From positions 1-64,000 of IMG/VR virus record IMGVR_UViG_3300025133_000060: a stretch of DNA of 64,000 nt, one strand, 5' to 3'. The notes below the pieces were generated by a model that was given only the letters and a program-made list of their open reading frames with translations, was not told where the DNA came from and did no database searches. The position numbers and the translations under genes were made by a program. How positions within the stretch are numbered: position 1 is the stretch's first letter; each line of letters opens with the position of its first letter. Shown in pieces: positions 22,608-57,427 of the stretch. The DNA comes from a virus.

Positions 22608-23978
22608 TCAGTCCCAGTCATCCCATTCATCATCATCATCATCGCCGGAGATGAATCCATCATCATCCTTTGACGCATCAACAACAGTCGGTGCGGAATC
22701 GCCGGACAATGCCTCAACGAGTTCCGCCTTCTTCATAGTGGAGTAGCCTTCGATGCCTTCTGCCTTGCACATGGCCTTGAGAGCCTTGACAGGGAGAATG
22801 GTGAGGTCAATATCGTCATCATCATCGTCATCATCATCATCATCCGATTCTTCGACCACAGGGGGTGCTTCTGGGGCTTCTTCGGGTTCAGATGGTGTTG
22901 GAGTAGTATCGACTGATTCGGTGGCTTCTGATGCACCGGAATCGTCATCATCGTCATCATCGTCATCATCAAGGTTGATGGCCTTTGCAGATTGCTTGTT
23001 GAAGTAATCAGCCGCATCATCCTCTTTGGATTCAACGGTGGCAACCTTAGCCACAATCGGTGCGACCAGAATGACAGGGAGAGCGACAACGATGTTGCCG
23101 GACAATCCGTATTCGCCTTGCACCTTAGTGGTGATGAGAGCGAGGATTTTGGAGTATTTGCCAAAGCGAGTAGCGATGTCGGTCGAACACAATGCGTTCA
23201 ACATGAGTGATTCACCAGATTCGATTGCTTCGAGAGTCATAGTGGAATCATCCTTGAGAAGTAATTTGCCGAACTGGTTTCCTGCACGACTGTTTTGAAC
23301 ACCGGCGTATGATACAGTAGCCTCAATCAAACGGTAATCGTTGCGACCACGACTGACATCATCCTCAAGGTCGGCTATATCCACGACTTCATAGGTGTCC
23401 TTGAGCAAATCGACAGCAGATTCATGTGTGTATTCTTCGGAGTGAAATGTGGTCAAGCCGGAGAGTGGGCGTAGGTCAAGAGTAGGCGCATCCAGATTGC
23501 GGCATGACACCGACACTTCATAGATTCCATCTCGTTCGACATCATCGCCGATTGCCGCATCATCATCCCAAAGAGACATTGAGAACATAGCCGCATCCAT
23601 AGCATCATCGCCATCCTCAACAACGGCTTGGCCGAATATGTTGCATACTGGTCGAGGGTTGCCTGATGCCGCACCAACGGTGTTGTGTGATACAGACCAT
23701 ATTTGAACATGGGCGGTGTATCGCTTTTGACGAAGAATACTGGTGAGGTCGGTGAGAACGATGTCGGTCAAGAATGCTTGGGCGACTTCACTTGCTACGC
23801 CGCCGAGTGAATCAACGGTCTCTTTCAATGAAGCGTCTTGTGCTTTGTTATTGAACATCGCAACCACAGGAGTGGCATCCTTGAAGATTCCATTGGCGAT
23901 GCCTCGCTCGATGAACGGAGCGAGTCGCTTTGCGGCGGTCGGTGGCAGGGCTAAATTATCGGCTTTCTTGGCTGACAT
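22608..23978 (-). CDS. RPA-like OB-fold ssDNA-binding protein with HeH/Rho-N domain and acidic tail
   Basis: SLWD.. and GKLLLKDDS OB-like strands; LKAMCKAEGIEGYSTMKKAELVEAL; ends DDDEWDDWD. Confidence 0.65.
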   Translation of the reverse strand: MSAKKADNLALPPTAAKRLAPFIERGIANGIFKDATPVVAMFNNKAQDASLKETVDSLGGVASEVAQAFLTDIVLTDLTSILRQKRYTAHVQIWSVSHNTVGAASGNPRPVCNIFGQAVVEDGDDAMDAAMFSMSLWDDDAAIGDDVERDGIYEVSVSCRNLDAPTLDLRPLSGLTTFHSEEYTHESAVDLLKDTYEVVDIADLEDDVSRGRNDYRLIEATVSYAGVQNSRAGNQFGKLLLKDDSTMTLEAIESGESLMLNALCSTDIATRFGKYSKILALITTKVQGEYGLSGNIVVALPVILVAPIVAKVATVESKEDDAADYFNKQSAKAINLDDDDDDDDDDSGASEATESVDTTPTPSEPEEAPEAPPVVEESDDDDDDDDDDDIDLTILPVKALKAMCKAEGIEGYSTMKKAELVEALSGDSAPTVVDASKDDDGFISGDDDDDEWDDWD

Positions 23979-31829: not shown

Positions 31830-31937
31830 GTTTAATCGTAGCAGTTCCCCCTATATGAAGGCTTCGCAATATCAATGGTTTTAACCCCTCAAAAGGGTGT
31901 TTTTTGACTGGCCGACTCATCAAAAAAGGCTCTGCGA

Positions 31938-32354
31938 TTACCTTTTCCAGAACAAGCCGTGAATGCTTTGAACTGGTCGGCGGTCTCTGACTCGTGGGTC
32001 TGTATCAACAACGACTTCACCAGATTTGTTTAGAAGAAGGACATGGCCTTTTACTGCGACAACAAATCCAACCAAACCTGCTTCAACGGCTCGGTCGGCG
32101 ATTGCATTCTTGAATTGTGAAACGGACTTTGCTTTGAACGCAGACTTGCGAGAGCGAACGGAGAACTCGGTCATCAATGCTCTCTTCAAATCTGGGAGAG
32201 TGTGAAGGAATCGGACATTATCAGCCACACCCATCGCTTCTGCGACTTTCAAAGCGCACCAGTTTTTGTTGGGGTTCTCATCGTTGTTCGAGTTTGCTTT
32301 ATGCCAATCTCTCTCCGCCTTTGCAGAAGTGAACCACTTCGGTTGGTTGCTCAT
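31938..32354 (-). CDS. Hypothetical protein, possible papain-like Cys/His/Asp fold (class I cassette)
   Basis: N.CAL.VA...GHVLL...VDT; class I promoter upstream. Confidence 0.65.
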   Translation of the reverse strand: MSNQPKWFTSAKAERDWHKANSNNDENPNKNWCALKVAEAMGVADNVRFLHTLPDLKRALMTEFSVRSRKSAFKAKSVSQFKNAIADRAVEAGLVGFVVAVKGHVLLLNKSGEVVVDTDPRVRDRRPVQSIHGLFWKR

Positions 32355-32461
32355 ATAACTTCGGTGGGGGTTGACCCTTATAATACCTTCTGAATCTCAA
32401 TGGTTTTGTTCCGACTCTTCTGGTCGACACAGTTATCGAACTCAATATCGGCTCATTCTCC

Positions 32462-32490
32462 AAGTCTAAACCCCTTTGGGGTTTAGACTT
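32462..32490. terminator. Perfect 13-bp hairpin at the end of the tail operon
   Basis: AAGTCTAAACCCC-TTT-GGGGTTTAGACTT directly at the stop of 32490-39446. Confidence 0.7.
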
Positions 32491-35400
32491 CAACCTTCAG
32501 GATAACCGGCCAAACCTTCGCCGCCACCATCAATCGAAGTTCCGAGTTCCATTTGGATTCCGCCAGCAGATGGATAGAATACTTCTGCGCCTTTGGTGTT
32601 GGTTCGATACCACGCCAGTTCGTTGGTGAACCATCTCAAGTCAATCTCGGATGCGTCATATCCCCAGAACCGTTGGAATCTCAATTGTGGGCTGTGATGT
32701 GGAAAGTCCTCTTCACCGGCCATCGTTTGAGCCGAACCGACTGGACTCCAAGTATTGTTGACTTCATCCCATCGAAGAGAAGGAACAGATAACCATCGAA
32801 TGTTCACCGACCTAAGAGTGTTGGCGGTAGTATCGAACTCGATTGATGGAACCCAACAATGCACGAGATGTTGATGTTCACTCCCGACCGAAGAGTCCAT
32901 GTATGGAGTAATTGGCGGAGTGATACTTTTTGTCCAGTTCGGGGATTCGGCGGGTTTGATGAACCCACCAATGTATGGAACTTCGGATGCAGCGGTTTCA
33001 TCCCCTGTTGGTGTTGCCGCCCAAATGAGTGGGGATAGTGCGGATTGGCGAGCCTTCGGAACTGTCGCATCTCGATAGACTTCTCCGAATCTCCCATCAT
33101 CCGAGCCAATCATCGTGAATGACATGACAATGTGGATATTCCCTTTGCCGTCAGTAGTGAGCGAGATGTCTCGATAATTGGGATTGGTTTTGCGGAGTTC
33201 TGACACTCCATCATACACAGGACCCCGCCATAGTGTGATGTGCGCTCCAAGACCATCTGTGCTGGTGTATTGTTCCGCAAGGGTCTTGCGAGTATCAAAC
33301 ACCGAGATGAGCGTCTGGCGTGGCGCATAGGCAACGGGAGAGGACTCCCTATCGTCTTTGATGGACAACACAATTGCCCTATCCCTTTCATCAATGATGG
33401 CATCATAATAGACCACATCTTTCGTCTCCATTGGATTCTTTGAATCTGGTGGGAGTCCGACCACATGAAAGCACTTGGTTGTATCAAATGCGAATCGACC
33501 AGATGGGTCGCTGATTCGATTTGGTGATTGGCCGATGTTGCAGTATATTGCATCATAGTTTCGACTGGCATCGGCGAACGATTGAATTGGCAATCCACGA
33601 TAGAACACCACAGGAATGTTGTCGCCTCTCAACACAACCTTCGGACAATCATTGTATGTTGTATAATGTGGACCCGATGCAGGTTGATTGAGGTCGGTCT
33701 CTGCCGCATCCACAATGAGACCATTCACCACTTGATACCGATTATCGTCAGGTCGCCCCTGCAATTCTGCGTTGTCGATAGGAGTGAATGTTGGGAATGA
33801 ATCTTCGCCAGCGAGTTTTGATGTGTAGTATATTCGATTGTTCTGTGGCAATCCCGTTGAACCAACATGAGACATTGGTTGAACGAACGACAAATGAAGT
33901 CGGTCATTCCCATCTATCACAAGTGATGGGTGTCGCATATCCCACATTGTTCCACCAGCCTCAAGTCCGGTGTATGTCGCCCCGCCTTGAAGCAACACAG
34001 GTGTGTGGATTGACCAGTCCCAATCATAAATGGGGTCGGGGTTTTGAGAGGGTGATGTGCGAACCGCTTTGTGATAATAGAATCTGTGCGCTCGATGGTT
34101 TGCCGTATCGTCTGGATTCGCATGATATTCGAGAATTGCATGAATCGTTCCCGCCGAATCCGATGCAAATGCCGCACCCATCACTCGGCCTTTGTGATAT
34201 TCTGCTGGGGTCGTGAGACCTGCTCCTATCGAGTTCAATAAGGGGCCGACTTCATCCAATCCTCCGAACACAGCGGATTCATTTTGTGGTTTCATCGCCT
34301 TCTTATTCCAAAACAAATCTCCGTGAAGTGGCTTCTTGATGTGAGTCCATTGTGGCAAATTGTCTGAACCTGATTGGCAAGAACGGCGGATGAAGAATTG
34401 ATGGAGTGTGCCGTCTGGTGTTCGCAATTGTCGTTGACCCATTCCGAGATTCTGTGGGCCTGACCCACCGGCCATTACTGCTGGGCCTGACATATCGTTG
34501 CCATCCATATTCGATTGCCGTTGAATCATATACACCCCCTTCGGGTCTTGGAATCCCATCCCGACCGCCGAAGCGATTGAACCAGAATCCCACATCGGCT
34601 TCGCCGTCTGCGACACATGAACATCAACACTCGATTGTAATTGCTCGGACAAAGCCAACACATCGAGTTCATGAATCTCGTTGACTCTCGCCAACATCAA
34701 TGGTGAATATCGACTGGATTCAATCATCGCCAAGTCATAATCGGAATTGGGGAGAATCGGCATGGCCGAAGCGTGAAAGTGGTCAGTCGGATGGTCAGAC
34801 CAAAACGCCTCAAGACCGAATGAGCCACTCACGATGGGTCCGTGAACTCTTGTTCCAATGGTGTCCATTGGTGCAATTTGCGCCCCTGACACACCACCCG
34901 AACCCCAAGTGGGCTTATCCCATAGGTTCGTTCTCAAGAAGTATTGACCGGCCACAGGTCGAGCCGCATCCGGTGGCGATTCTCCACCGAGTTCAAATCC
35001 TGTGTTGAATTGTGATGCTCCCAGCAGATGAATGTTGTCGGTTCGGTGGAATGGAGTCTCCATCTCAAGTTCAATGGCGTTCTTTCCACCGGCTCTCGCT
35101 CGAACACTCACGGCTGGTGGAATTAACAAATGAATTGGAATGTTGTAGCCGACTCCACCGTGAACTTGTTTGAATACTCGGTCGACTCGATATGGGTGCA
35201 TTTTGGTTGAGATTCCATAATGCAGGGGTCCGTGATGCGACCAACCACCAACCCGACCACGCATCAACCGATGACCTTGAACCTCCGCACTCCCCCAAGA
35301 GAACACCCGACCACCGACAGTCAATGATGTCCATTCCATCGCCCCTATTGCTTCGAGTGGCGGTGGGAGATTTGGGTCCCAAGTCCGAACCAGATAGTTT

Positions 35401-38400
35401 GTTGGTTCTTCTCGCAAAGCCCTGCCATCAGATGCTTGATATTGGCTTTCATAGATGGTTGACCAATCGCTCAATAATGGGTCGAGAATCGCCGCCACAA
35501 TGTCGGCCACGCTCGACACACTCACAGGTGCGAAGATGCGTTCGTGGGGTCCAGTTCCCAATTTATACACTATCATCGAATCAAGCGTGGTTGGGAATGA
35601 TACTCCACGCAAGTCGACAAAGCGACCCACATTTGGAGCCCAGAGATTTGCGCCAGCACTATCCGAATCATCTGCGACATCTCCGAATCCTTTGAAAATT
35701 GCTTGCTCGGTAGGAGTAATGACTCCACCAACGAGTGGACTTGCATCAAGTGATTCTGGTGCATCGGAGAAGAATGTTTGGTTATCTCCATAGGATATTG
35801 GGTCGAATAAGCCTCGTGGGAATGACCAGCCTGACCAGCCGAGTTCTTGGAATGGATTCGCACCAGAACCAAAGTCAGCAAATCCAATTGTGGTTGGAAC
35901 GAACCGAGTCAATTTCACATGAGAATTGCGAATCCCCACCCACGCATCCGTGATTCTGGTGTCGTTGTCAACGAGGTCGGGGGTTGCTTTTGACATTGAC
36001 TTGGCTGTGATTATCGGTTGGATGGTTGGGAATCCAGACGAGATGCGAGCCGAGTCGCTTAGAGCAGGTGTTCCATATTCATTGATTAAGAACGGGAGAG
36101 AGCGAGGGAGATTTGCATATGACATTCGACAATCTGGGTATGAACCATAGGTGATTGGGATTGCTCTTTGACCAGACTCTTGATACCAATATGAGATTCG
36201 TGCGCCACTCCACCAAGTATCGCCGTCAGTCCATGTTTGTCGAGCGATATTTTCAATTGTTCCACCAGTTCCGATTGACACCTTCTCCCATGTGATGTCG
36301 AATAATGCTCGACCACGCTTGGCGAACCCCGTATCGGGGTCGGCTTTCGCATCGGAGAACATGAGGATGAGAGAACGGGCTTGAGTATTCGCCATCAATT
36401 TTGACCAAGTGGGATATGCCGAGAAGTTATCGCTCTTGGGTGTTGAGCCGCCAGAGCCATTGACCGGAGTGGGAACAGAACTCGATGGTTTAGCATCTCC
36501 AGATTGTGGGTCGGGTCCGAAGCCAGCCGGATAATCTGCCGACTCACCACCGATGGGAATGCACTTGCCGCCCGATTGATAATATCCGGCAGGACAACCG
36601 CCGGTGTCGAGGTCAGGATTCAAAGGATATTTGATGTCAACCGCCGGATAATCGTTCTCGGTTTTGATGTAGTCGACATGAACCGCCGCCATAACGAAGC
36701 GACCATCATCCATCGCTCTTAGACTGGAACAATGAAGCGTTGGGTGATAGATGGGCGCACTACCACCACTCGCCTTTGGATGCTTCACAGCGTTCTTCTC
36801 TTCACGACCGAGATAACGCATCATCTCAATTTGAGGCATGACCCAATCATGTATCGACCACACCGCACCATATCCCAGCGGAGTATTTGTGAGTTCACCA
36901 ATTTGAGTTCGAGTGATTGAATCACAAGTCGCCGCCGAATATGGAATCGACACACCAGAACTTGGAAACCCAGAGAGTATCGGGTTCGATAAGTATGTGC
37001 TGGAACGAGTATAGAGTGGGTCGAGAGTCGGAGAATATCGCCAAACCAACAATTCACAACCTTGCGGAATTGTAGGTGTGCCGACTCCATCTGGCCAAAC
37101 CTGACCATTCCCCCATATCCCGTAGTGAGGTTGCCCATCAACGGTTGTCGATGTTTGGCACAATTGCGTTGGGTCTATGACATCTGCACCGATGAATATC
37201 TCGCCTTTGTATTCACAAGCATCCCACACATGAGAGATGCCACCCCGCTGGAATGAACCACCGCCTTCAACCGCCGCACATAGGTCGGGGATTTTGGTGT
37301 TGGTATCAGCCAAAGCAAGTGGTCGGAATGGTGTTGCTTGGTGCAATCCCCACCCCATGTGAGCCTCACCCTCTTCAATATCAGCCCATGTGTGGCGAGG
37401 CATCACAGACATCGGGCATTCATTCTCTAATGGGTCAATTCCAAGTGCGGCTCCAGCCGTTGCATCAATGAATATCTGTTCAAGAGATGTTGGGTCGATT
37501 CGGAATATGCCGTGATAGATGGTGCATGGAATATCAGAGAAGTCGCAGTTCACAGATAGGCGAGTGCCATCGGGGTTATTCCGTTGAGTCGGTGTTCCGG
37601 TTGGTGTATTCCCCACGCTTGTGTCTGCTGTTCCATCTGGCACATGAGATTCTCGCACCACCGAGACAATGACATGATAGTCAACAAGAGGCTTGCGGAA
37701 TGTTTGACTCGCCGCCGATGGATGGTTGGCCAATTTTGCGGCTCCTGCCGACACTTCAATGTCAGTATAGCCGGTGATGACGGGAACAATCTGAACTTTG
37801 GTTGGAACTCCATCTGCAATCCATCGACCTGTCGAATATGTGGAGTCGATGAGTTCTGGTGAGTCATCGCCCTTTGTATTGGAGCCGATAATTTTGCCTG
37901 TTGTTCCTGCTCCGCCCTGCTTAATCTGGTTTGAGTTCACCAATTGATGTGGAACTCGACCCAACGGACCCACCATAGTCGGCTGGTCGGGTATGGCCGA
38001 AGTGTGCAAATCTCCAGACGAGAAGTTCCTAAACCAAGTGGCGTTGGCATTGACATCAACACCGAGAGGATGAGTAGCGGCTCGACCTGCGTGGGTTGAG
38101 AGCGCATCGAACATTGGGTCAATTCGCCCCCCATCTGACCCATACAAATATGCTGGTTGTGTTGGTGTTCCTGTTGTATAGCCGTTGCGCCTGACAGGTG
38201 TGCCGGAATTGACTTGAATGTTCAACCCCGCATATCCCTTGCTCGCATCGGCGATAGACACAGGACCCAACACTCCACCAGTATCAGTCGCTTTGGTCGG
38301 TGCGAAGAATGCGGTGGCCGTGATGACTCCTTCATATCCAATTAACCCAACCGAGTCTGCGACAACACTCGCACCCAAGTCGGCTCGACCCAGATTGGTT

Positions 38401-39446
38401 GCCGTCAACGGGGTCGCTCCTGTTCCATCATCGAATACATCATTCGTGAGAATCTGTTGAATTGTCGACCCGCCAGCAAGCGACCATTCTGAAACGGCTT
38501 CTGCCACATCTGTTGCACCCATTGTAATTGCCCCCGTCATACCATCTGGTGAACTGATGTCCTTGCCGGTCAACAGGAATGGTTGTTGTGTTCTCATGTT
38601 CACCGACCAATGCGCCGAGAAGTCAAAAGCATCGGCATCGAACTGGATTCCCGCCGCCGTTGTCATGGTGCTTTCGATTGGGGCCGACACAACAGTCGTG
38701 AGATAATTGGAATTGTGAGCATCGTGATAAATCATTCCGATTCCGTTCGAGGGAATTGCTGGAATCGAATCGTGAACAATCGCCTCAACAATTCCCCCAC
38801 CAATGAAAGTCGGTTCGGTGCAAAGTCCGATGGATGATTTTGCGACCGTAGTTCCATAGATGAAGTCATATTGAGTTCGATATTCTCCTGTGTTGGAATC
38901 CGATTCCTTCATCCACGAATGATTCGCTGGTCGAGGTGAAGCATATCGTTGGTCAGGATGGTCAGTATATTGACCACATTCCGTGATACTCAATCCAGCG
39001 AATTGAGCCGAACCTGTCAATTGAGTCGCATCCCATCTCCCCATAGACACATCTTGGCCAATCTGACCGAACAACAACGACCCACGAGTGTGGCTCATGA
39101 CGGGTGCGCTGGTGTTGATTCTCAAGCCTGTCGCTCGTGCTTCTTGATTCAAACCTGTCGGGTCCACTATCGGCCATTCGTCTTTGGCGAGATTGGTTGC
39201 CGAAGGACACACCGCTTTGGGATTGATTGTCGTTCCAGATGCGGTTGTTGCTTGAGTCGTTCGTGGTGTCCAAATGGCTTCATCAAATAACGCCATGCGA
39301 GTGGCTTGAGCATCGGCGATGTTGTCTTTGATACTATCGTTGAACACCAGCGTCAATGGGAGTCCACGAGAACCGACCGGTGGAATAGCATCAACGGTGT
39401 CCACAGGCATTCCTGTGGCGGGAGTGATTGCTGGCGCTGGCGACAC
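32490..39446 (-). CDS. Giant (2318 aa) tail/adhesin structural protein
   Basis: G/T/S/P-rich and beta-propeller-like (D..G.LH/IH repeats); last gene of the tail module; class III-like promoter. Confidence 0.7.
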   Translation of the reverse strand: MSPAPAITPATGMPVDTVDAIPPVGSRGLPLTLVFNDSIKDNIADAQATRMALFDEAIWTPRTTQATTASGTTINPKAVCPSATNLAKDEWPIVDPTGLNQEARATGLRINTSAPVMSHTRGSLLFGQIGQDVSMGRWDATQLTGSAQFAGLSITECGQYTDHPDQRYASPRPANHSWMKESDSNTGEYRTQYDFIYGTTVAKSSIGLCTEPTFIGGGIVEAIVHDSIPAIPSNGIGMIYHDAHNSNYLTTVVSAPIESTMTTAAGIQFDADAFDFSAHWSVNMRTQQPFLLTGKDISSPDGMTGAITMGATDVAEAVSEWSLAGGSTIQQILTNDVFDDGTGATPLTATNLGRADLGASVVADSVGLIGYEGVITATAFFAPTKATDTGGVLGPVSIADASKGYAGLNIQVNSGTPVRRNGYTTGTPTQPAYLYGSDGGRIDPMFDALSTHAGRAATHPLGVDVNANATWFRNFSSGDLHTSAIPDQPTMVGPLGRVPHQLVNSNQIKQGGAGTTGKIIGSNTKGDDSPELIDSTYSTGRWIADGVPTKVQIVPVITGYTDIEVSAGAAKLANHPSAASQTFRKPLVDYHVIVSVVRESHVPDGTADTSVGNTPTGTPTQRNNPDGTRLSVNCDFSDIPCTIYHGIFRIDPTSLEQIFIDATAGAALGIDPLENECPMSVMPRHTWADIEEGEAHMGWGLHQATPFRPLALADTNTKIPDLCAAVEGGGSFQRGGISHVWDACEYKGEIFIGADVIDPTQLCQTSTTVDGQPHYGIWGNGQVWPDGVGTPTIPQGCELLVWRYSPTLDPLYTRSSTYLSNPILSGFPSSGVSIPYSAATCDSITRTQIGELTNTPLGYGAVWSIHDWVMPQIEMMRYLGREEKNAVKHPKASGGSAPIYHPTLHCSSLRAMDDGRFVMAAVHVDYIKTENDYPAVDIKYPLNPDLDTGGCPAGYYQSGGKCIPIGGESADYPAGFGPDPQSGDAKPSSSVPTPVNGSGGSTPKSDNFSAYPTWSKLMANTQARSLILMFSDAKADPDTGFAKRGRALFDITWEKVSIGTGGTIENIARQTWTDGDTWWSGARISYWYQESGQRAIPITYGSYPDCRMSYANLPRSLPFLINEYGTPALSDSARISSGFPTIQPIITAKSMSKATPDLVDNDTRITDAWVGIRNSHVKLTRFVPTTIGFADFGSGANPFQELGWSGWSFPRGLFDPISYGDNQTFFSDAPESLDASPLVGGVITPTEQAIFKGFGDVADDSDSAGANLWAPNVGRFVDLRGVSFPTTLDSMIVYKLGTGPHERIFAPVSVSSVADIVAAILDPLLSDWSTIYESQYQASDGRALREEPTNYLVRTWDPNLPPPLEAIGAMEWTSLTVGGRVFSWGSAEVQGHRLMRGRVGGWSHHGPLHYGISTKMHPYRVDRVFKQVHGGVGYNIPIHLLIPPAVSVRARAGGKNAIELEMETPFHRTDNIHLLGASQFNTGFELGGESPPDAARPVAGQYFLRTNLWDKPTWGSGGVSGAQIAPMDTIGTRVHGPIVSGSFGLEAFWSDHPTDHFHASAMPILPNSDYDLAMIESSRYSPLMLARVNEIHELDVLALSEQLQSSVDVHVSQTAKPMWDSGSIASAVGMGFQDPKGVYMIQRQSNMDGNDMSGPAVMAGGSGPQNLGMGQRQLRTPDGTLHQFFIRRSCQSGSDNLPQWTHIKKPLHGDLFWNKKAMKPQNESAVFGGLDEVGPLLNSIGAGLTTPAEYHKGRVMGAAFASDSAGTIHAILEYHANPDDTANHRAHRFYYHKAVRTSPSQNPDPIYDWDWSIHTPVLLQGGATYTGLEAGGTMWDMRHPSLVIDGNDRLHLSFVQPMSHVGSTGLPQNNRIYYTSKLAGEDSFPTFTPIDNAELQGRPDDNRYQVVNGLIVDAAETDLNQPASGPHYTTYNDCPKVVLRGDNIPVVFYRGLPIQSFADASRNYDAIYCNIGQSPNRISDPSGRFAFDTTKCFHVVGLPPDSKNPMETKDVVYYDAIIDERDRAIVLSIKDDRESSPVAYAPRQTLISVFDTRKTLAEQYTSTDGLGAHITLWRGPVYDGVSELRKTNPNYRDISLTTDGKGNIHIVMSFTMIGSDDGRFGEVYRDATVPKARQSALSPLIWAATPTGDETAASEVPYIGGFIKPAESPNWTKSITPPITPYMDSSVGSEHQHLVHCWVPSIEFDTTANTLRSVNIRWLSVPSLRWDEVNNTWSPVGSAQTMAGEEDFPHHSPQLRFQRFWGYDASEIDLRWFTNELAWYRTNTKGAEVFYPSAGGIQMELGTSIDGGGEGLAGYPEG

Positions 39447-39491
39447 ATCAAATGGTCATTCGTGCCGCTTTAAGTGGTTATTGATGAAATG

Positions 39492-39795
39492 AAAAAAGAC
39501 TTCAACCCCCGAAGGAGTATGAAGCGAGTCGAGATTTAAGGCAGAACAAAACCTTTGGACAGTTTAACCCCCACTCCGGTTCTCGCTCACAAGCGGTGAT
39601 TTGCTTAGAACTCTGACAGGCCTTCTTGGGGGAATACGCCGCATTCACGCCTTGATATTTCAACCACCGATATTCCGGTGGCTCTTGGTATTTCAACCCG
39701 CAAGGCGATACTCTGTTTGGCGCATCCATGAATCCTCTCGACTCAATGCCCCCATTCAAAGAAGAGGGGCGGCTTCGGTGGGGGTGTTCTCCCAC
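39492..39795 (-). ncRNA. Candidate ~300-nt structured non-coding RNA
   Basis: Class I promoter at 39821-39844; nested helices with G-U pairs on the minus strand; terminal hairpin + U6. Confidence 0.6.
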
Positions 39796-39846
39796 AAACC
39801 TATCGAGTCAGCATCGACTATATGAACTCTTCGGAATATCAATGGT

Positions 39847-41658
39847 TTATTGAGATATTCCAAGCGTGAACTTCAATGTCGACATCAAGTCTTGGCCTTG
39901 CCGACCCACCGTCAATGTCATTGTCGAACCTGATGGACTCATGCCCCATGCGATGTTGAATATCCTATGGCGACCAGATAGACTCGCCTCGTTCGATGCG
40001 AACTCCATCACATCTCCGACTCTCAAATCGAATCGCTCTGGAATGCCGTTGACCACCCACTTGGTTCGTTGAAGTCCTTGAGTATTCAAGAAGTATTCGC
40101 CAACCAATTTTGCTTGAACTTCATCGGTGATTGAATCATCCTCAATTCTCTTCTCCACAGGAATGGATGGGTATCGAGTGGAATCGGTTGCTGGAACTGA
40201 CACATTTATGTCCAGTTCAGGATTCGACACTATCGCAACATTGAATCCTGTGATTTCACCGGATTCTCTCTCAATTCCTGTTGGATAGAAGTCTTGTGGC
40301 AACGCACTTCTCGGCATTCGACCGGCGATGAATGGTTGGACTGTTGCATCATCGACTTCACGCAATTTGCGAAAATTGATGTAGCCATCCGCCGAGCAAT
40401 ATATCTGGTTCAAGGCGGGAGTGCTATTGATGATATTCAATATCGTTTGGATTGCCGACAGGCGAGTCTGACCAACGAAGTTCATTCCGGCTGGGAGAAC
40501 GACATGGGATTGATTTGCCATGCGACCAACAGGCGGAGCATAAGTGGAGTTCGCCACAATGTCTTTGATAACGGTTGCCGCATCGGTTTGAAAATATGTC
40601 ATTGACCCCTTGACCACTTCGAGATTCAAATAGCCGAGCGCACACAAACACTTGAATGAAATGTCGCTCGATGATTCGTGAACTTCTGATACAAATCCGG
40701 TGAACACAAGTGGTGGACTCGCCCATGTTCTCGGACTCGCATACACTTGAACTGTATCGCCTCGCTTAATCCAGCCAGTTCTTCTGCCAGATGGATTATT
40801 GAGTTCGATATTGACTTCGGTGGGGCCATTGAAGTTCTGTGTGAGATTCACAGAAGTGATTCCATGCAAATCATTGAGTCCGTTGATAACAACAGTCGGG
40901 GATTGTGGTGTTGCTTCATCTCGTGCGAGGGGTCCATAGAGATTCCTGAACAACACTCTCCGTGAGCGAGCGAAGAATATCTTGTGCGCCCAGCCGTTTC
41001 TAAGCCCCCCTAAGCGCATCCTTTTGGGTCGGTTAGTCCATTGTAGTCCTTCGGGATTCCAACCGCCGTCAGAGAAGCCCAATCGCCCCAAATTGAATAC
41101 TGGTTGAGGGAGAATGGCGGTGGGATATGCACCTTCGGTGGGGCCGGTTGTCATGGAGAATCCACCACGAGGACCCCCGCCTCTTCTGGTGATTATGTCT
41201 TGTTGGTCGGGGAATCCTGTTGAACCTTGATAATTGTAGCCGAATCCGAGCGCACCCGTTTTGACATCGCCATGCAATTGAGGGTCAAACGGTCTTGGTG
41301 TGGTCAGGCTTGTGTAGCCCAGCGTGGTGTTCCTATCTCGCAACCAAACGCCACTCAAGTCAGATGGGAATGGAATCATATCCAAACCCCAATCCACCGG
41401 ATAATGTGCCGGTCGATACATGAGTTCCTTTTCACTATGACTTGCATCGAGTTCGACTCCTGTGCCTTCGCTCATAGATTCGTGGGAATGTTCCAACCAG
41501 ATTCGTGAAGCCCAACGAGCGATGGCGGTGCGAGGTCGGCGAGGGTCTTGACCCATCCGTTCGATTTCATCCAACAAGCCCTTCGGCGGAGTGATGATTA
41601 GTTCATCATCGCCAGACCTGACCAAGCGGTGGAATCGCTCGATACTGTCTTTGTCCAT
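39847..41658 (-). CDS. Tail hub/baseplate (gp27/GpD/Tal-like) protein
   Basis: VFTGFVSEV, DGYINFR, L.VGD...G.HRI..I.W.....MTLTVG; position after the Dit-like gene. Confidence 0.75.
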   Translation of the reverse strand: MDKDSIERFHRLVRSGDDELIITPPKGLLDEIERMGQDPRRPRTAIARWASRIWLEHSHESMSEGTGVELDASHSEKELMYRPAHYPVDWGLDMIPFPSDLSGVWLRDRNTTLGYTSLTTPRPFDPQLHGDVKTGALGFGYNYQGSTGFPDQQDIITRRGGGPRGGFSMTTGPTEGAYPTAILPQPVFNLGRLGFSDGGWNPEGLQWTNRPKRMRLGGLRNGWAHKIFFARSRRVLFRNLYGPLARDEATPQSPTVVINGLNDLHGITSVNLTQNFNGPTEVNIELNNPSGRRTGWIKRGDTVQVYASPRTWASPPLVFTGFVSEVHESSSDISFKCLCALGYLNLEVVKGSMTYFQTDAATVIKDIVANSTYAPPVGRMANQSHVVLPAGMNFVGQTRLSAIQTILNIINSTPALNQIYCSADGYINFRKLREVDDATVQPFIAGRMPRSALPQDFYPTGIERESGEITGFNVAIVSNPELDINVSVPATDSTRYPSIPVEKRIEDDSITDEVQAKLVGEYFLNTQGLQRTKWVVNGIPERFDLRVGDVMEFASNEASLSGRHRIFNIAWGMSPSGSTMTLTVGRQGQDLMSTLKFTLGISQ

Positions 41659-41694
41659 ACACTATCGTGCGCCCTTGCGGGTTATCACGGTTGT

Positions 41695-42106: not shown

Positions 42107-45100
42107 TCAAACGCCAAGACCCGCCTCTCGAACCAGATTGATTGTGTATGGAGTTTCACCATGTCGACCACCTTCTCGATTGTAGTCGAACGATGTGATT
42201 CGACCCACGAATGTTTTGCCTGTCGGTGTTCCTACATAATTGACGGATTCCCACATGAACTCCACGAGCGAACCACTCATCAGCAATTCTTCAACGAACT
42301 CAATATCGGCATTGGCGGTTTCAGTCAGGAATGAACCGGAGAGAGCGAACTCATCATGTCTTTGACCCATATCCGTCAGTTCTGGATAGACGGCATCGAG
42401 AACAGGAGTTTGCGACCATTCTGCGCTTCGGTTGCGTTGGAATCCCTTTGGCATGATATTGAAAACGAGAGGAACCACGAGCGTTGCTGGCAGAACCTTG
42501 ATAATCGCCGTTGCGGTTTGTGAGGATGCACTATCATTGTCGACAACGACCAATGTGGCTTGGTATTCACCAGCCGCCGCATAGGTGTGTTGGGCGGTTC
42601 CAGATGCGTTGGTTGTTGACCCCGACCCATCTCCGTATGTGAATGTGTATGAAGAGAGGCTCGCACCCGCATTGATGTCGAATGAATCTGTTCCATCGAG
42701 AGTGATGGGTTGCCCTGCTCTGATGAGAGATGGAACGGCTCGGAGAACTGCGACTGGTGCGGAGTTCACCACGACAACACTCATGGTCGCCGCATCCGAT
42801 TCATTCCCCGCATCGTCTTTGGAATACACTTTCGCATCATAAGTTCCGGCGATGAGATATGAGTGTGCCGTATCATAAGTATTGGTTTGAAGCGTCTGGT
42901 CGGTGAATGGCAACCAATCGGTGATGACTCCATCTCCAAAGTCGAACTTGACTTGTGTGATGATTCGGTCGATGTCAGTCGTGATTCCAGTTCCCCTGAA
43001 TGACACAATATGACCGACCTTTGTGTCAATGGGGGGAGTGATGTCGCCATTGAAGGTGTTGCCTATGCAAGCAATACTGGCGGTTGGTTTGATGTCATAC
43101 TCAAGCGACCACGAACGAATGATTGGGGTTGTTGACCAATCCACAGGTTGAAGCGTTGCCATCGAACTTGTTGGAACATAGAATAAGAATCGAATCACGA
43201 ATCCATTGGTTGTTGCATCGGTTGGGAGAGTGGTCAAATCAATCGAGCCGAATCCGCCGATGACATTCAAATCCAGAGCATCAAAGTTCTCGTATGGAGT
43301 TCCACCTTCGCCTTGACGAAGAACCGTCAAATCGGTTGCGATATTGTCATTGACCGGACAGATTGACACCTTGACATTCATGCCCTTTGACACATTGATG
43401 TTGTCGACTTCGACACTCAAGCCTGTGTATTTGCCAACACCCGCAATTTGTTGCTTGCGAGAGTCCACAGGGAATGGAATCATAGCATCGGATGGAATGT
43501 GCCGGATGGTGATTTCATCCATCTGGAACGCCGCATTCGTTTTGTTGTATGTTGGGTTCGCCATCCACATATCGTTGCCGACTCCATCGTGAAGTGGACT
43601 TGCATTTGATTTCAATCCTTGACCACAAGACTTCTGAAACAACAATGAGAATCCCCACACAGGGTCGTTGGAGTTCAGGTCTTTGCCCTTGCTCGCACCA
43701 TCTATGCTCATTGTCATGCCTTCTTCATCGAATGTCGCTCGCATGGTGTGATAACCTTCGGTCATTGTGAATGGTGTGCCGGTTCCAATGTAGTTCCCCA
43801 TAGTTCCCCAGCCCACATTATTTCCTCCCATAGCGGCATACGGCCACGAGTTCTCCAATGCGACATCAACCCAATCACCGCCCAACGATACATCGGCTTG
43901 GTTGTAATTGAACGCTGGCGGTTCACCCCACATGGCCGACCCACCCCAGACAAATATCTGGGAATTGTGCGAAGCCAATTTGGTTTGTGATTCGTTTTGA
44001 ATGTTCATGCTTTTCCAGCCCAAGTCTGTCGCCGAGCCTTCTCCTGTTCCCCAAGACACTTCGTCATTCAAGCCTTCGATGAGTCCGATTCGAGTGAATC
44101 CTTGTGTCCAAGTCAACATCGAACCGTGATTGTTGTGAGCATGACGACCGAACTGGATATTATTCACGCCAGTATCGAAGTCGATAATAGTCAACAAATC
44201 CTTCTGAACTGGCCACCACGCTTTTATCTGCAAATCCAACCAGATTGGAGAACACCCGACTTCGGTGAGTCCAGTATTTGTTGTCTCCATTCCGTATGTT
44301 CGGTCTCCAACAACGGTTGGGTTGGGTTCGAGTAATGTCCATGATGTTTGCCCGAATGACCCATAACCACCCTTCGTGGCGACTCGCTCGTGGACTGGCC
44401 AGATTCGATTGCGACCATACGGCCACTTCTCGACACCCGTTCCGGCTGGACAATAATCCCATGCGTGATAGCCGGTTGCTTGGTCATAGAATGAAGTGAA
44501 TAGAATTGTCATTCCCTTGCTAAACCATCCTGCGGATTGGGAATTGTATGAGAACTTACTCGCATTCTTCGACAGCACATTCGCAGGGTCGGTTTGACTC
44601 ATTTCATAGACGGCGTTGTGGCCAACCGAGAAGTTCGACCATCCCATATCCGCCACCAATTCCATTCCAGAACTCGAAAGACGGTCAACATTTGTGATGC
44701 TGAAATACTGACCAGCATGGCCGAATGAGTTTGGTGCGTTGCACCGTAGCATTCCACCACCATGCCCACCGGCTATCGGGTTCGATATGAACACATCTTG
44801 AGTGGGTGATTGGAGAGATATTCCAGCAGGGGTATTCGCATAATCCCCAAACCATCCACCCATGTCGTTTGACCATAATGCGAGAGGGTCGAGTGTCAAT
44901 CTGGTCGGGCTGGTGAAATTATGGCCACCGTATGCAGGAACATTTTGACCACCAATGTATGCGCCACCAATGAATCCGACACCCATTTCAGCATCATAAA
45001 TGGGGCCTTGTGTGGTGAATATGTTGTATTTGTTGGGGGAATAACTGGCTGACCTATCTCTATCTCGGCCTACTGCCGTTCCCGACCCCGCATAGAATCC

Positions 45101-47335
45101 TGATATTGGGTCGTATGGCCAAGTCCCACCATTCCCAATGTCGGTGTCATTGACGGATGCTGAACCATCCCAATAATTGTAGCCGCCCCATGAGAACTCC
45201 GCCCCACCCATGATGCCCTGACAGACGAATCCTTTGGCACAAGCGTATGTGGTAATGTCTTGGATTGAATTAGATTTGCTCGAAGGTGGGTCGGGCAAAG
45301 ATATGCTATATCCGGTGTTGATGGTGAAGGTCAATTTGTGGCCGGTGAATGTGCCTACTGCACCACTCACAATTGTCGACTTGGCTACGCTTGCGAGCGC
45401 ATCGACAGCCGTGATAATCCACCAACCAGAACGAGATGAATAGCCACCCAATGTGTCAGTCGCTCCACCACCAAGCACCACACTCATCCAAGTGTCAGCA
45501 TCCCATTCCATCCCATATTCTCGACTATTTGGACCCTGTTGCCATTGATACATCAAAGTTCCATCGGCGGCACGAAGGCCATTCAATACACCATCCATCT
45601 CCATGTAAATTGGCATACCTGCTTTCCATTTGTTCGCCTTGCCCACTTCGGTGTTATTATCCTCAACCCACACCGTCAGAGTTCCTGTGGCAGTTCCCGA
45701 AGTGGTATGAGGATTCCCCGACCCATCACCGCTGGCTTGCCCAACCGCATAAATTGGCGCACGAGTCGGGTTGGGTCGCACCAAACACGAACGAGGTTGT
45801 TGTTGAAGGGTTGCGGCAACGGGTGAACTCAAGGTGTTTGGTGAACTCCCACCATCTCCGGTCGCTCCATTGATGTATGCGTCATTTTGTTGACTATTCC
45901 ACTCTATGTATGCAGGAAACCATTTGTATTGCACGACATCATAGTCATAGTTCCATCCTTGACCGGCTGGGCATAAGGGGCCTTGAATGAAATCAAACAA
46001 AGGGAATATCTGTGCGGATTGACTTCGTGAGGTTGTCGGTGTGTCCAGTTCGGCTTGGGTATTGGCGACTCCACCCTTGCCATTCCAAACCGCATAGCAA
46101 GTCGTTCCATCCGAGCCGCCAATGGTTCTCGCTGGGTCATAGATGTAGGGGATAAGTGAGCCACCAGAGAGTGTATATGTGCCGTCTTTCAAGAAGCAAG
46201 CGAGTGCAGTTCGCATTCGATATGAGGGTCCACCATAGGCGGATGATGATGGGTCAATATCCCAATTGACATAATCCCATAGGTTGTCGGGATTCCGAAC
46301 AGTATCGACCTTTTGAAATGAACCAACCTGCCCCTCTTTGAAATCTCCAGATGACTTGAACCATTTGAATCGAGCCCCGCTAACCGTCTCAGTTTGTGGA
46401 TATACTGTGTCGGTTTGAGGTTGTTGATTATGACGGGTCATTCCTTCGTCAAAGAAATTGAAATATGTTCCCGAATCACCAATTCCAGATTCGGCTGGTC
46501 GGGCTTCTGTCCAGACGCCCCTCACAATGTCGTTGCTCACCCCCGCAGTCTCATATGATAATTGATTGTTATCATATAGCAACGGTTGGAACATCGTGGC
46601 GATGTAAAGGCCGATGTTCGGTAATGGATTGTTGTGAGCAAGGTCAATGCGTGGGTCGAGATTGGCCGCTGGCCAAGCGGATGATGAGGCGATTGTTCCA
46701 CCGACACTTGTATCTCCCTTGAGACCCTGTGGGAGCCAAGCCGATTTAGTGGCCTGTTCGACCGCCATTCCGGTTGTTGCCGCCCAATAGGTATCGAAGG
46801 CGAGTTTATCCCACGAATTGGCTAATCCATCCATCCAATCAATGAAGTCTTGAAGTGTTGCATATACCGGATAGGGGCCAGCCGAGTTCTTGTGGGGAGT
46901 CAATGGTGCGATGTTCTGGTTCATCGAACCAGCCGCCGCCGAGTCTTGAGCCCCATATCCATTCGATGTGTTCGTATCTGCGCTCGGCGAAACAAATCTC
47001 CATTCTGTGCTTGTGCCGTCAGGATGCGTCAAAATACAACGAGCATTATGAGTTCCAGAGTCGACAATCTCGATGGTCGGAGTTCCGGTTGGCTCACTCC
47101 CATCTATGTTCAAACACTCGACTCGAACACCTGCCGTATTTGCTTCGTCATTGAATCCTCGACCTTCATCCTCAAGGGTATCTGCACCCAATTGAGTGTG
47201 GAACATCACAGGGTCAACGGATAAGCCGTTCTTGCCATCTCCCTTGATGTATGCTGGCCACCATCGTTGCTTCTCGGCCAAGTCATTGAGAACTCTTGAG
47301 AAGCGATATGAGATGATTCGTTTGAATGATGCCAA
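42107..47335 (-). CDS. Large tail protein with two PKD domains and a C-terminal Dit/gpU-like domain
   Basis: FDFGDG...HSY..AGTY and YGDG...HTYAAAGEY PKD signatures; directly after the tape measure. Confidence 0.78.
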   Translation of the reverse strand: MASFKRIISYRFSRVLNDLAEKQRWWPAYIKGDGKNGLSVDPVMFHTQLGADTLEDEGRGFNDEANTAGVRVECLNIDGSEPTGTPTIEIVDSGTHNARCILTHPDGTSTEWRFVSPSADTNTSNGYGAQDSAAAGSMNQNIAPLTPHKNSAGPYPVYATLQDFIDWMDGLANSWDKLAFDTYWAATTGMAVEQATKSAWLPQGLKGDTSVGGTIASSSAWPAANLDPRIDLAHNNPLPNIGLYIATMFQPLLYDNNQLSYETAGVSNDIVRGVWTEARPAESGIGDSGTYFNFFDEGMTRHNQQPQTDTVYPQTETVSGARFKWFKSSGDFKEGQVGSFQKVDTVRNPDNLWDYVNWDIDPSSSAYGGPSYRMRTALACFLKDGTYTLSGGSLIPYIYDPARTIGGSDGTTCYAVWNGKGGVANTQAELDTPTTSRSQSAQIFPLFDFIQGPLCPAGQGWNYDYDVVQYKWFPAYIEWNSQQNDAYINGATGDGGSSPNTLSSPVAATLQQQPRSCLVRPNPTRAPIYAVGQASGDGSGNPHTTSGTATGTLTVWVEDNNTEVGKANKWKAGMPIYMEMDGVLNGLRAADGTLMYQWQQGPNSREYGMEWDADTWMSVVLGGGATDTLGGYSSRSGWWIITAVDALASVAKSTIVSGAVGTFTGHKLTFTINTGYSISLPDPPSSKSNSIQDITTYACAKGFVCQGIMGGAEFSWGGYNYWDGSASVNDTDIGNGGTWPYDPISGFYAGSGTAVGRDRDRSASYSPNKYNIFTTQGPIYDAEMGVGFIGGAYIGGQNVPAYGGHNFTSPTRLTLDPLALWSNDMGGWFGDYANTPAGISLQSPTQDVFISNPIAGGHGGGMLRCNAPNSFGHAGQYFSITNVDRLSSSGMELVADMGWSNFSVGHNAVYEMSQTDPANVLSKNASKFSYNSQSAGWFSKGMTILFTSFYDQATGYHAWDYCPAGTGVEKWPYGRNRIWPVHERVATKGGYGSFGQTSWTLLEPNPTVVGDRTYGMETTNTGLTEVGCSPIWLDLQIKAWWPVQKDLLTIIDFDTGVNNIQFGRHAHNNHGSMLTWTQGFTRIGLIEGLNDEVSWGTGEGSATDLGWKSMNIQNESQTKLASHNSQIFVWGGSAMWGEPPAFNYNQADVSLGGDWVDVALENSWPYAAMGGNNVGWGTMGNYIGTGTPFTMTEGYHTMRATFDEEGMTMSIDGASKGKDLNSNDPVWGFSLLFQKSCGQGLKSNASPLHDGVGNDMWMANPTYNKTNAAFQMDEITIRHIPSDAMIPFPVDSRKQQIAGVGKYTGLSVEVDNINVSKGMNVKVSICPVNDNIATDLTVLRQGEGGTPYENFDALDLNVIGGFGSIDLTTLPTDATTNGFVIRFLFYVPTSSMATLQPVDWSTTPIIRSWSLEYDIKPTASIACIGNTFNGDITPPIDTKVGHIVSFRGTGITTDIDRIITQVKFDFGDGVITDWLPFTDQTLQTNTYDTAHSYLIAGTYDAKVYSKDDAGNESDAATMSVVVVNSAPVAVLRAVPSLIRAGQPITLDGTDSFDINAGASLSSYTFTYGDGSGSTTNASGTAQHTYAAAGEYQATLVVVDNDSASSQTATAIIKVLPATLVVPLVFNIMPKGFQRNRSAEWSQTPVLDAVYPELTDMGQRHDEFALSGSFLTETANADIEFVEELLMSGSLVEFMWESVNYVGTPTGKTFVGRITSFDYNREGGRHGETPYTINLVREAGLGV

Positions 47336-54305: not shown

Positions 54306-55036
54306 GATTCACCCTTGCCGTTCCGGTTTAACTTTGTATCGAACTCAATATCCGCATCATGGATTTCACCCTCCATCTGCAAATGGTCAGTTCTCGCTCG
54401 CTTCAACAATCTCCGCAATCTCGCCGCCTCCGCCGCATCCAATGTTCCACCGTTCTCCACTTTGTATAGCAAGGAGTCGATGTCATTATCCATCTGTCGA
54501 GGTGGACCCGAACGCTTTGAAGTGTCGCCTTCGAGTTCTTTTTTCGCCGCCCGTTGTCGTTGTTTTCGCCTTTTTCGTCTGCGCTTCTTTTGTCGGGTCA
54601 AGGAGTCGTTGCCAAAAGTCGAACTCGCCGCACCAGCCTCACCAGCCTCAATCCAGATGGACTTCTCACCAGATTCAACGGCTCTGCGATGGTCGGTGTA
54701 ATGGTCTCGCCGGTGGCAATTGGAACAAATGACATCACACTTCTCAATCTCGGTGAGTATTCGCTTCTTGGCTAATCCAGCGGCGACCATTCCAGAGATG
54801 AGGTAATCCTTCTCTTCTGGGTTGCGATGATGGAACTCCAACGCCCATGCGTTATCCTCTCCAGATAGCCCACACACCGCACAAGAGAGAGTCTCTTTGA
54901 GTTTTCGCATCCACTCTCGGATTCCCCTCTTTCGACTCCGAACCTGCTCAATTCGAGAGCCACGATTTTGTTGATACCATTTGCGATGATACTCCCGTTG
55001 ATACGCCGCCCGTTTCTCTCGGTCTTTGTGTGGCAT
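54302..55036 (-). CDS. HNH endonuclease
   Basis: CAVCG...LEFHH...EIEKCDVICSNCHRRDH; Arg-rich N- and C-terminal helices. Confidence 0.85.
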   Translation of the reverse strand: MPHKDREKRAAYQREYHRKWYQQNRGSRIEQVRSRKRGIREWMRKLKETLSCAVCGLSGEDNAWALEFHHRNPEEKDYLISGMVAAGLAKKRILTEIEKCDVICSNCHRRDHYTDHRRAVESGEKSIWIEAGEAGAASSTFGNDSLTRQKKRRRKRRKQRQRAAKKELEGDTSKRSGPPRQMDNDIDSLLYKVENGGTLDAAEAARLRRLLKRARTDHLQMEGEIHDADIEFDTKLNRNGKGES

Positions 55037-55074
55037 GAATCGCCATCATACTGTGAGGGTTAAGAAAGAATGGG

Positions 55075-57361: not shown

Positions 57362-57371
57362 GGTTTATCAC
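57362..57371 (-). promoter_or_regulatory. Class III promoter (GTGATAA(A)CC / TCTTAACCC) of structural-region genes
   Basis: Copies at 41687, 55065, 55179, 60133, 39475 (-) and 2659, 55202 (+); start 28-30 nt downstream except at 55179. Confidence 0.65.
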
Positions 57372-57372
57372 G

Positions 57373-57427
57373 GAGTCGCCCCTCGAAAGGTTTGGCTCAC
57401 GCTATTCCCTATCAGTCAAGGCGACTC
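57373..57427 (-). terminator. Stem-loop in the 3' UTR of the major capsid gene
   Basis: GAGTCGCC / GGCGACTC inverted repeat just after the MCP stop. Confidence 0.45.

Follow-up and report, generated by a model that had tools for sequence, protein, structure and literature searches.

The subject of this report is a 400-nt gap (39447-39846) in a 64,000-nt stretch of viral DNA, hereafter the window (positions 1 to 64,000 of the IMG/VR virus record IMGVR_UViG_3300025133_000060, of which it is a part and which is 81.5 kb long). The gap separates two tail genes on the minus strand, encoding a 603-aa protein (39847-41658) and a giant protein of 2318 aa (32490-39446). An earlier note on this DNA, made from the letters alone, had placed between the two genes an undescribed non-coding RNA that is structured and separately promoted and terminated, and the present analysis supports this proposal: 39800-39492 (minus strand) probably constitutes a gene of its own, for a multi-helix RNA of ~305 nt that is non-coding, carried by a magrovirus-like virus.

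Promoter, fold and terminator

The upstream end of the gap is occupied by the class I cassette promoter, an extended motif of the B recognition element (BRE)/TATA type (CATTGATATTCCGAAG..TTTATAGG). Its occurrence exceeds chance, with 15 matches in the window against 2.5 expected, and 12 good copies are present in the 81.5-kb genome. The motif stands at constant spacing ahead of at least ten leaderless genes, and outside the RNA locus an ATG is found 48-51 nt after its first base, which points to a predicted BRE/TATA-type promoter of the kind expected for an independent archaeal-type RNA gene. The intergenic repeats of halovirus HF2 are tested promoters built as long repeated motifs, with the TATA element at about -26 from the transcription start (PMC8707807); because of this spacing, the RNA is taken to start near 39800 and would thus be ~305 nt long. 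A T7-type promoter, considered because the motif ends in TATAGGG, was dropped as an idea, since the archaeal replication genes of the virus and the TATA-to-start spacing explain the motif. A search of the genome for a single-subunit RNA polymerase gave no match, and the control genomes also gave none.

The structural genes of the virus bear a different signal, a late-type promoter box (GTGATAACC, TCTTAACC, AGTTAAACC or CACTTAAAGC) located ~30 nt before the start codon, without a Shine-Dalgarno sequence and in some cases followed by a GTG or TTG start. Such boxes are found on the minus strand at 39467-39476, 41680-41690, 57365-57375, 55055-55065 and 54325-54340. The RNA had been described as lying inside the tail operon; its position between tail genes stands, but both flanking genes have their own late-type box ~29-30 nt before a leaderless start, and so the RNA unit does not lie within an operon in the bacterial sense. 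The 'tail operon' resembles a series of leaderless genes, each with a promoter of its own.

Termination by the archaeal polymerase requires a U-run and does not require a hairpin. Runs of five or more T are depleted on the sense (minus) strand of the whole 81.5-kb genome (16, compared with 43 on the antisense strand), a distribution consistent with oligo-T termination. The proposed RNA ends in a U6 (39497-39492) which is one of only six sense-strand runs of six or more T in the 81.5 kb, making it a probable oligo-U terminator. These few runs of six or more T sit at gene ends, for example at 31927, just after a gene ending at 31938. The 3' hairpin that precedes the U6 was not flagged by a simple terminator scan, because its stem is interrupted.

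The minimum free energy (MFE) fold of 39492-39844 (minus strand) reaches -122.9 kcal/mol, against -106.3 +/- 5.5 kcal/mol for shuffled sequences (z -3.0, with none of 100 shuffles as good), and recovers nearly all of the helices proposed in the earlier note. The individual elements were confirmed at their places on the minus strand, namely the 5' hairpin GUGGG/CCCAC, the GAAGC/GCUUC stem, the hairpin GCCCC..GGGGC, the 9-bp long-range helix, the enclosed helices GGAUGCGCC/GGCGUAUUC, CGCCUUG/CAAGGCG, AGCCACCG/CGGUGGUU, CCCCCA/UGGGGG and AAGG/CCUU, the terminal hairpin CUUCA..UUCG..UGAAG (39524-39500) with its U6, and the two copies of a 15-nt repeat (39698-39684 and 39665-39651). The minus strand was said to be favoured by its wobble pairs, and it is indeed the better folded of the two, the plus strand reaching -106.7 kcal/mol (z -2.0). 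The features of the locus are collected in Table 1.

Table 1. Features of the RNA locus and of related cassettes. Positions are those of the window unless preceded by the name of a related locus.
Feature	Position	Strand	Basis and remarks
Class I cassette promoter, extended BRE/TATA-type motif CATTGATATTCCGAAG..TTCATATAG	39818..39846	minus	12 genome copies; kept at the same site in L001, L007 and L009
Predicted transcription start	39797..39800	minus	Promoter-to-leaderless-start spacing elsewhere in the genome; HF2 TATA at ~-26
P1, 5'-terminal hairpin GUGGG/CCCAC, then conserved CCGAAG (39778-39773)	39778..39795	minus	Covariance model R1, 13 sequences from relatives
P2, 5' strand GAAGC (closing helix)	39772..39776	minus	Pairs with GCUUC 39525-39521; both strands kept in L007 and formed in the L007 MFE fold; invariant, so no covariation evidence
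P2, 3' strand GCUUC	39521..39525	minus	Overlaps the outer stem of the 3' hairpin
P3, hairpin GCCCCU..GGGGGC	39748..39770	minus	In MFE fold; L007 GACCCU..GGGGUC, one compensatory change (C-G to A-U)
P4, 5' strand of the 9-bp long-range helix (GAGUCGAGA)	39736..39744	minus	Partner 39534-39526; L007 GAUACG/CGUAUC, two compensatory pairs
P4, 3' strand UCUCGACUC	39526..39534	minus	Pairs with 39744-39736
P6, 5' strand GGAUGCGCC	39719..39727	minus	Partner 39640-39632; in MFE fold
P7, 5' strand CGCCUUG	39701..39707	minus	Partner CAAGGCG 39654-39648; L007 AUCCAU/AUGGAU, three compensatory pairs
Invariant 19-nt block UGCGGGUUGAAAUACCAAG, with a small T-loop-like hairpin inside (first copy of the 15-nt repeat)	39684..39702	minus	100% identical in L007
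P7b, hairpin AGCCACCG..CGGUGGUU	39662..39683	minus	In MFE fold; the corresponding L007 hairpin is shorter and differs in sequence
Second copy of the 15-nt repeat, GGUUGAAAUAUCAAG	39651..39665	minus	Present in the window; only partly conserved in L007
P8, 5' strand CCCCCA	39627..39632	minus	Partner UGGGGG 39573-39568; L007 CUCCCA/UGGGAG, one compensatory pair
P9, hairpin GUUC-UAAGC..GCUUG-U-GAGC	39585..39611	minus	L007 keeps GUUC/GAGC; inner stem UAUC/GAUG (two compensatory pairs); UUCG-capped extension added
Conserved block GAGUGGGGGUUAAAC, including the P8 3' strand	39562..39576	minus	14 of 15 bases identical in L007
P10, hairpin AAGG..CCUU, window only	39538..39555	minus	In MFE fold; large insertion there in L007
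3' hairpin CUUCA..CUCC-UUCG-GGGG..UGAAG and U6, likely archaeal-type terminator	39492..39524	minus	In MFE fold; U6 rare on this strand; L007 has a UUCG hairpin after GCUUC and no U-run
97-codon GTG open reading frame, judged not to be a gene	39502..39795	minus	Disruption in L007, codon score, no PHROG match
Late-type promoter box CACTTAAAGC of the giant gene; outside the RNA, right border of the cassette	39467..39476	minus	~29 nt before GTG 39446; the 98%-identical flank of L001 and L007 begins just upstream
Swapped RNA bodies, type B versus type A	L001:4869-5570 (type B); L007:2678-3276 (type A)		Between the same two promoters
Type B elements	L001:4885-5420; L009:5374-6190; L086:4890-5580; L095:1-420		Highly conserved ~180-nt core around GCCUAAGUGGUUAAGGGCGUGAAGUCGG...GUUCGCCCCAGAUG

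Rfam, to which the earlier note had pointed as a check, holds no matching family. A cmscan search of 39300-40000 (701 nt) at E<=10 with lax filters returned only a chance snoRNA match on the other strand, and at the gathering score the window, the remaining genome and 21 related loci all gave nothing. The models covered by this null result include RNase P, T-box, tRNA-like, GOLLD, ROOL, manA and the marine IMES RNAs.

Conservation and exchange among related viruses

In the collections searched (IMG/VR, one metagenome scan and one genome scan), the window RNA has a single close homologue, located in L007, an 81.6-kb metagenome contig. The two RNAs, ~305 nt in the window and ~450 nt or more in L007, are the only members of what is here called type A; exact-pattern scans of IMG/VR for further members gave chance matches or none. 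Helices were matched between the two sequences by hand via conserved flanks; a MAFFT-based RNAalifold analysis misaligned the 3' strand of P7. The nine shared helices comprise 46 pairs, of which 36 are unchanged, one is altered on one side and still pairs, nine carry compensatory changes (one in P3, two in the long-range P4, three in P7, one in P8 and two in P9) and none is broken. Pairing is thus kept by double compensatory change in nine of the ten altered pairs, a small sample. Six compensatory core pairs were found independently by RNAalifold on the automatic alignment, despite the one misaligned strand. As the outcome speaking against an RNA, the earlier note had named a conserved open reading frame (ORF) with no compensatory base changes; the opposite pattern was found, the frame being broken in L007 and the helices kept.

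L007 differs from the window through whole hairpins inserted at junctions, so that P4, for example, spans ~380 nt between its strands in L007 and 200 in the window, and several unpaired blocks are invariant. The block UGCGGGUUGAAAUACCAAG is unchanged in L007 while the helices flanking it differ, and L035, L038 and L068 have a similar sequence, GGUGAAAUACC, in their RNA cassettes, with four of its five distinct matches in the gaps, which make up 12% of the sequence. The UAAAC(U) of the conserved block GAGUGGGGGUUAAAC recurs in the type B RNAs described below. For P6, the pairing GGAAUACC/GGAGUUCU is possible by eye at the aligned place in L007, with one mismatch, and its support is weaker than that of the other helices. 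Inspection by eye around CCGAAG and the closing helices for a kink-turn or a bulge-helix-bulge motif gave no fit; no antisense target of the invariant blocks was found in the viral genome, and no self-complementary or palindromic conserved loop, which might hint at a homo-oligomer, was obvious by eye. Contigs from four other marine DNA runs (one, X2, spanning the stretch, and three partial) show no difference within the RNA, and hence no population variation.

A wider comparison was made with 80 related loci fetched from IMG/VR. In all of them a gap of 300-1170 nt follows the gene of the 603-aa type, and the gaps are mosaic. Four loci (L001, L009, L086 and L095) carry type B, a larger and different non-coding element of about 600-850 nt, in a slot of 700-900 nt, which has no conserved ORF and no Rfam match, and for which RNAalifold predicts 105 pairs, 18 of them with compensatory changes, among only three distinct sequences. 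A pattern scan of IMG/VR for the type B core added one contig. L001 (type B) and L007 (type A) share 98% identity in both flanks, yet they are unrelated in the 600-700 nt that separate the class I promoter from the promoter of the giant gene. The pattern is that of a clean cassette replacement, the RNA body being exchangeable between near-identical viruses.

The RNA cassettes have in common a 5' module, in which CCGAAG follows a hairpin that opens at the predicted first base or beside it, and which is present in about 14 relatives and in both orientations. With a covariance model (R1), this module was found in 13 sequences from distinct relatives. Across these 13 sequences, 81.7% of the cells of the 5' hairpin pair, compared with 73.4% in shuffled sequences (0 of 500 shuffles as high) and 36-65% in slid registers, and nine cells are changed on both sides, a number reached by 0 of 500 shuffles. 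The window RNA is the only copy of the module in the window genome. In four relatives the promoter and 5' module lie on the opposite strand (L032:5137-5171(-), L036:2263-2297(-), L038:2995-3029(-) and L068:1920-1954(-)), and L057 carries the module twice, before and after the 600-aa gene, with one copy at L057:1912-1945(+). The inverted and double occurrences suggest that RNA cassettes have more than one insertion site and are not bound to one orientation. Suggestive helices of 7-9 bp closing the ends can be drawn in other cassettes (L001, L009, L057, L070 and L072); 7 bp is expected by chance in 500 nt, and these helices are not relied on.

A set of more distant relatives (L046, L048, L050, L051 and L053) has different conserved non-coding signals in the same slot. 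Here, the first 60 nt after the 600-aa gene contain a perfect G/C-rich hairpin (e.g. UUCCCCCCCUUUAGGGGGGAA), placed directly behind the gene, and motifs rich in ACACACA and UGUAUGU.

The carrier of the window RNA is an uncultured marine, magrovirus-like tailed virus, and its hosts are probably archaea. Its genome encodes a tape-measure protein, a portal, a prohead protease, and a replication set comprising a family B DNA polymerase (PolB), an RFC-like clamp loader, an archaeo-eukaryotic primase and an XPD-type helicase. The nearest relatives of the PolB among cultured viruses are haloarchaeal tailed viruses, and the same gene pattern was described for magroviruses, viruses of marine group II archaea (PMC5434244); the archaeal host is read from these replication genes and their kinship. 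The 603-aa protein has 86 database relatives besides the window copy, at 37-81% identity and from marine metagenomes. The window copy itself belongs to no Pfam or PHROG family, and blastn and tblastn searches against cultured phage records gave no match for either the RNA or its 603-aa neighbour. Further features of the genome include two very large proteins which bracket the region on the minus strand (2318 aa, and 1742 aa at 42107-47335), with the 603-aa gene between them; an exact palindromic 14-16-mer, TATTGAGTTCGATA(TT), repeated within neighbouring tail-gene coding sequence (38869-38884, 40797-40812 and 32434-32448); and, in the replication module, a 456-aa protein (22608-23978, minus strand) with a Rho_N domain (Rho termination factor N-terminal, SAP-like) near its C-terminus.

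Interpretation and alternatives

In the proposed mechanism, the class I cassette promoter would drive a discrete, stable RNA with the start and end predicted above. In its fold, the closing helix GAAGC/GCUUC, stacked on the 9-bp long-range helix, joins the 5' and 3' parts around a branched core, and the end-closing helices together with the terminal hairpins would protect the RNA from exonucleases. The product may act in trans as a stable accessory RNA, with the invariant loops (UGCGGGUUGAAAUACCAAG, CAGAGUUCUA and GUUAAAC) serving as putative contact surfaces for protein or for tertiary or quaternary RNA contacts. A role as a protein-binding decoy or scaffold in virus-host conflict is suggested tentatively, as a credible but not a favoured outcome, because units of viral structural regions that have their own promoters and are exchanged rapidly usually serve as accessories in host takeover or counter-defence. 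The remaining probability of an RNA gene falls to other functions in trans, which are indistinguishable here.

A broader extension, speculative and on balance unlikely, is that magrovirus-like viruses carry a modular repertoire of exchangeable structured RNAs which share the first-base hairpin and CCGAAG as a 'handle'. The task of the handle would be to recruit a single conserved factor of the virus or the host, that of the variable bodies (305 to ~850 nt) to engage different host targets, and the whole would amount to an RNA toolkit for counter-defence or host takeover, recombined at the shared promoter and handle.

Several observations weigh against an autonomous RNA gene. The comparison rests on one close homologue only, and counting alignable helices alone biases the pair count upward. 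No equivalent of P5, P10 or the second repeat copy exists in L007, P6 is imperfect there, and L007 as a whole folds no better than shuffled sequences (z -0.9). The L007 and type B RNAs have no U-run, and hence a discrete 3' end is not general. None of the sequencing runs that carry the stretch is an RNA run, so the start, the end and transcription itself are inferred. The GTG of the 97-codon ORF lies exactly where the virus puts leaderless start codons.

The element could alternatively act in cis, as a leader or attenuator of the giant gene, with the class I transcript either stopping at the hairpin and U6 or reading through, and with a switch formed by the closing helix GAAGC/GCUUC and the outer 3' stem GCUUCA/UGAAGU. 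The GCUUC strand is common to both structures, the large tail gene always follows immediately on the RNA in the window, L001, L007 and L009, and transcripts of L007 and type B, having no U-run, may run into the giant gene. This arrangement is nevertheless improbable. A conserved late-type promoter box belongs to the giant gene itself and lies ~29 nt before its leaderless GTG, the border of the cassette lies upstream of that box, and the presence of the same module on the opposite strand in four relatives argues against a leader role for the downstream gene. Moreover, as archaeal termination needs the U-run and not the hairpin, competition for the hairpin would be no switch.

A similarly low probability is given to the stretch having no function of its own, as a recombination scar or a decaying cassette in a hypervariable slot which happens to fold. 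Across about 50 relatives the slot forms a mosaic whose gaps measure 300-1170 nt and have little sequence in common, type A has two members only, and the contigs from the four other marine runs add no variation inside the RNA from which selection could be read. By contrast, a stretch without function would not be expected to show nine compensatory changes and none that disrupt, a 19-nt invariant block amid diverged helices, and the retention of an intact promoter and a rare U6, in a genome of a kind that is otherwise tightly packed.

Still less probable is a small protein gene, that is, a leaderless mRNA translated from GTG 39795 into a 97-aa product and forming a moron-like cassette with its own promoter and terminator. 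The ORF, which the earlier note had itself raised as a caveat, does exist. The promoter motif begins 49 nt before its GTG, a spacing that matches the 48-51 nt to the ATG in other cassettes, other genes of the virus appear to start leaderless with GTG or TTG, and the codon scores of small ORFs that occupy this slot in certain relatives are gene-like (0.15-0.27 in L030 and 0.30 in L070). The frame of the window is, however, interrupted in L007 by a 2-nt deletion after the fifth codon and by further indels of 8, 12, 12 and 4 nt, with stops in all three frames. The codon score of the ORF is 0.014 bits per codon, far under the 0.13-0.33 of the genes of this genome and compared with -0.08 +/- 0.10 for shadow ORFs; its product matches no PHROG family, and the differences separating the window from L007 preserve RNA pairing by compensation and are not synonymous. 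Judged on these sequence comparisons, the RNA is without a conserved reading frame and would be non-coding.

The RNase P-like double T-loop module that the earlier note had also proposed, by which the RNA would bind tRNA through an interdigitated T-loop pair as in the RNase P specificity domain (S-domain), is highly improbable: an invariant hairpin (GGGUUGAAAUACC), present twice in the window, has a loop (UUGAAAU) that appears to fit the T-loop pattern U-U-N-R-A loosely, but the strands named as CR-II and CR-III are not conserved. An inserted hairpin stands in place of UGAAUGC in L007, and another one breaks up AAACAGAGUAU; conservation also fails for the second 15-nt repeat copy. Searches with the RNase P, T-box and tRNA-like covariance models matched neither the stretch at E<=10 (local matches allowed) nor the genome and relatives at the gathering score, and ARAGORN found no tRNAs. 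A relative of RNase P was rejected on these grounds. A diversity-generating retroelement template or a retron RNA was likewise set aside, as the genome has no reverse transcriptase (no RVT_1 match, with controls detected) and no template/variable repeat pair; no long repeat links the RNA to neighbouring genes.

Significance and known systems

In the surface ocean, magroviruses rank among the most abundant viruses, and their hosts (Poseidoniales) are uncultured. In the magrovirus literature, as searched, neither promoters nor intergenic regions nor non-coding RNA are mentioned. An RNA gene that has covariation support, folds compactly and comes with a defined promoter and a probable terminator can be made and probed without the host. 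Cassette exchange between 98%-identical viruses, together with the shared 5' module, suggests a class of accessory RNAs with rapid turnover, a pattern usually seen for anti-defence proteins.

With the RNase P specificity domain and T-box stem I there is at most a loose likeness of one small loop (UUGAA...) to the T-loop pattern; the window RNA differs from both in matching no model, in the lack of conservation of the proposed strands and in having no catalytic regions. For the class I motif, the closest precedent is provided by the intergenic repeat promoters of HF2 (PMC8707807), which are likewise long, promoter-bearing repeats scattered in the genome of an archaeal tailed virus. The HF2 repeats drive protein-coding transcripts and their activity was shown, whereas here one copy would drive a structured non-coding RNA, and activity is predicted from the motif.

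Among large RNAs, the window RNA most resembles GOLLD and ROOL, which are often found in phages and prophages and are similarly virus-borne, separately transcribed, multi-helix and orphan (PMC5737381; 10.1101/2024.12.08.627333). The likeness extends to their organization, with variable peripheral helices around conserved unpaired blocks and a size that varies via inserted hairpins. The window RNA differs in matching neither model, in its host, which is probably archaeal rather than bacterial, in its BRE/TATA-type promoter and in its smaller size. To our knowledge, a shared 5' module and cassette exchange have not been described for GOLLD or ROOL.

In its genomic behaviour, the element is comparable to the morons of lambdoid phages, in which a promoter-gene-terminator unit is inserted between conserved structural genes. 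The RNA cassette is also an independent unit between two conserved tail genes, and is present, absent or replaced in close relatives, with borders at the promoter and before the next gene; the comparison of L001 with L007 displays both the replacement among close relatives and the sharp borders typical of such units. The difference lies in the cargo, which here would be an RNA instead of a protein, and in the virus, which is probably archaeal.

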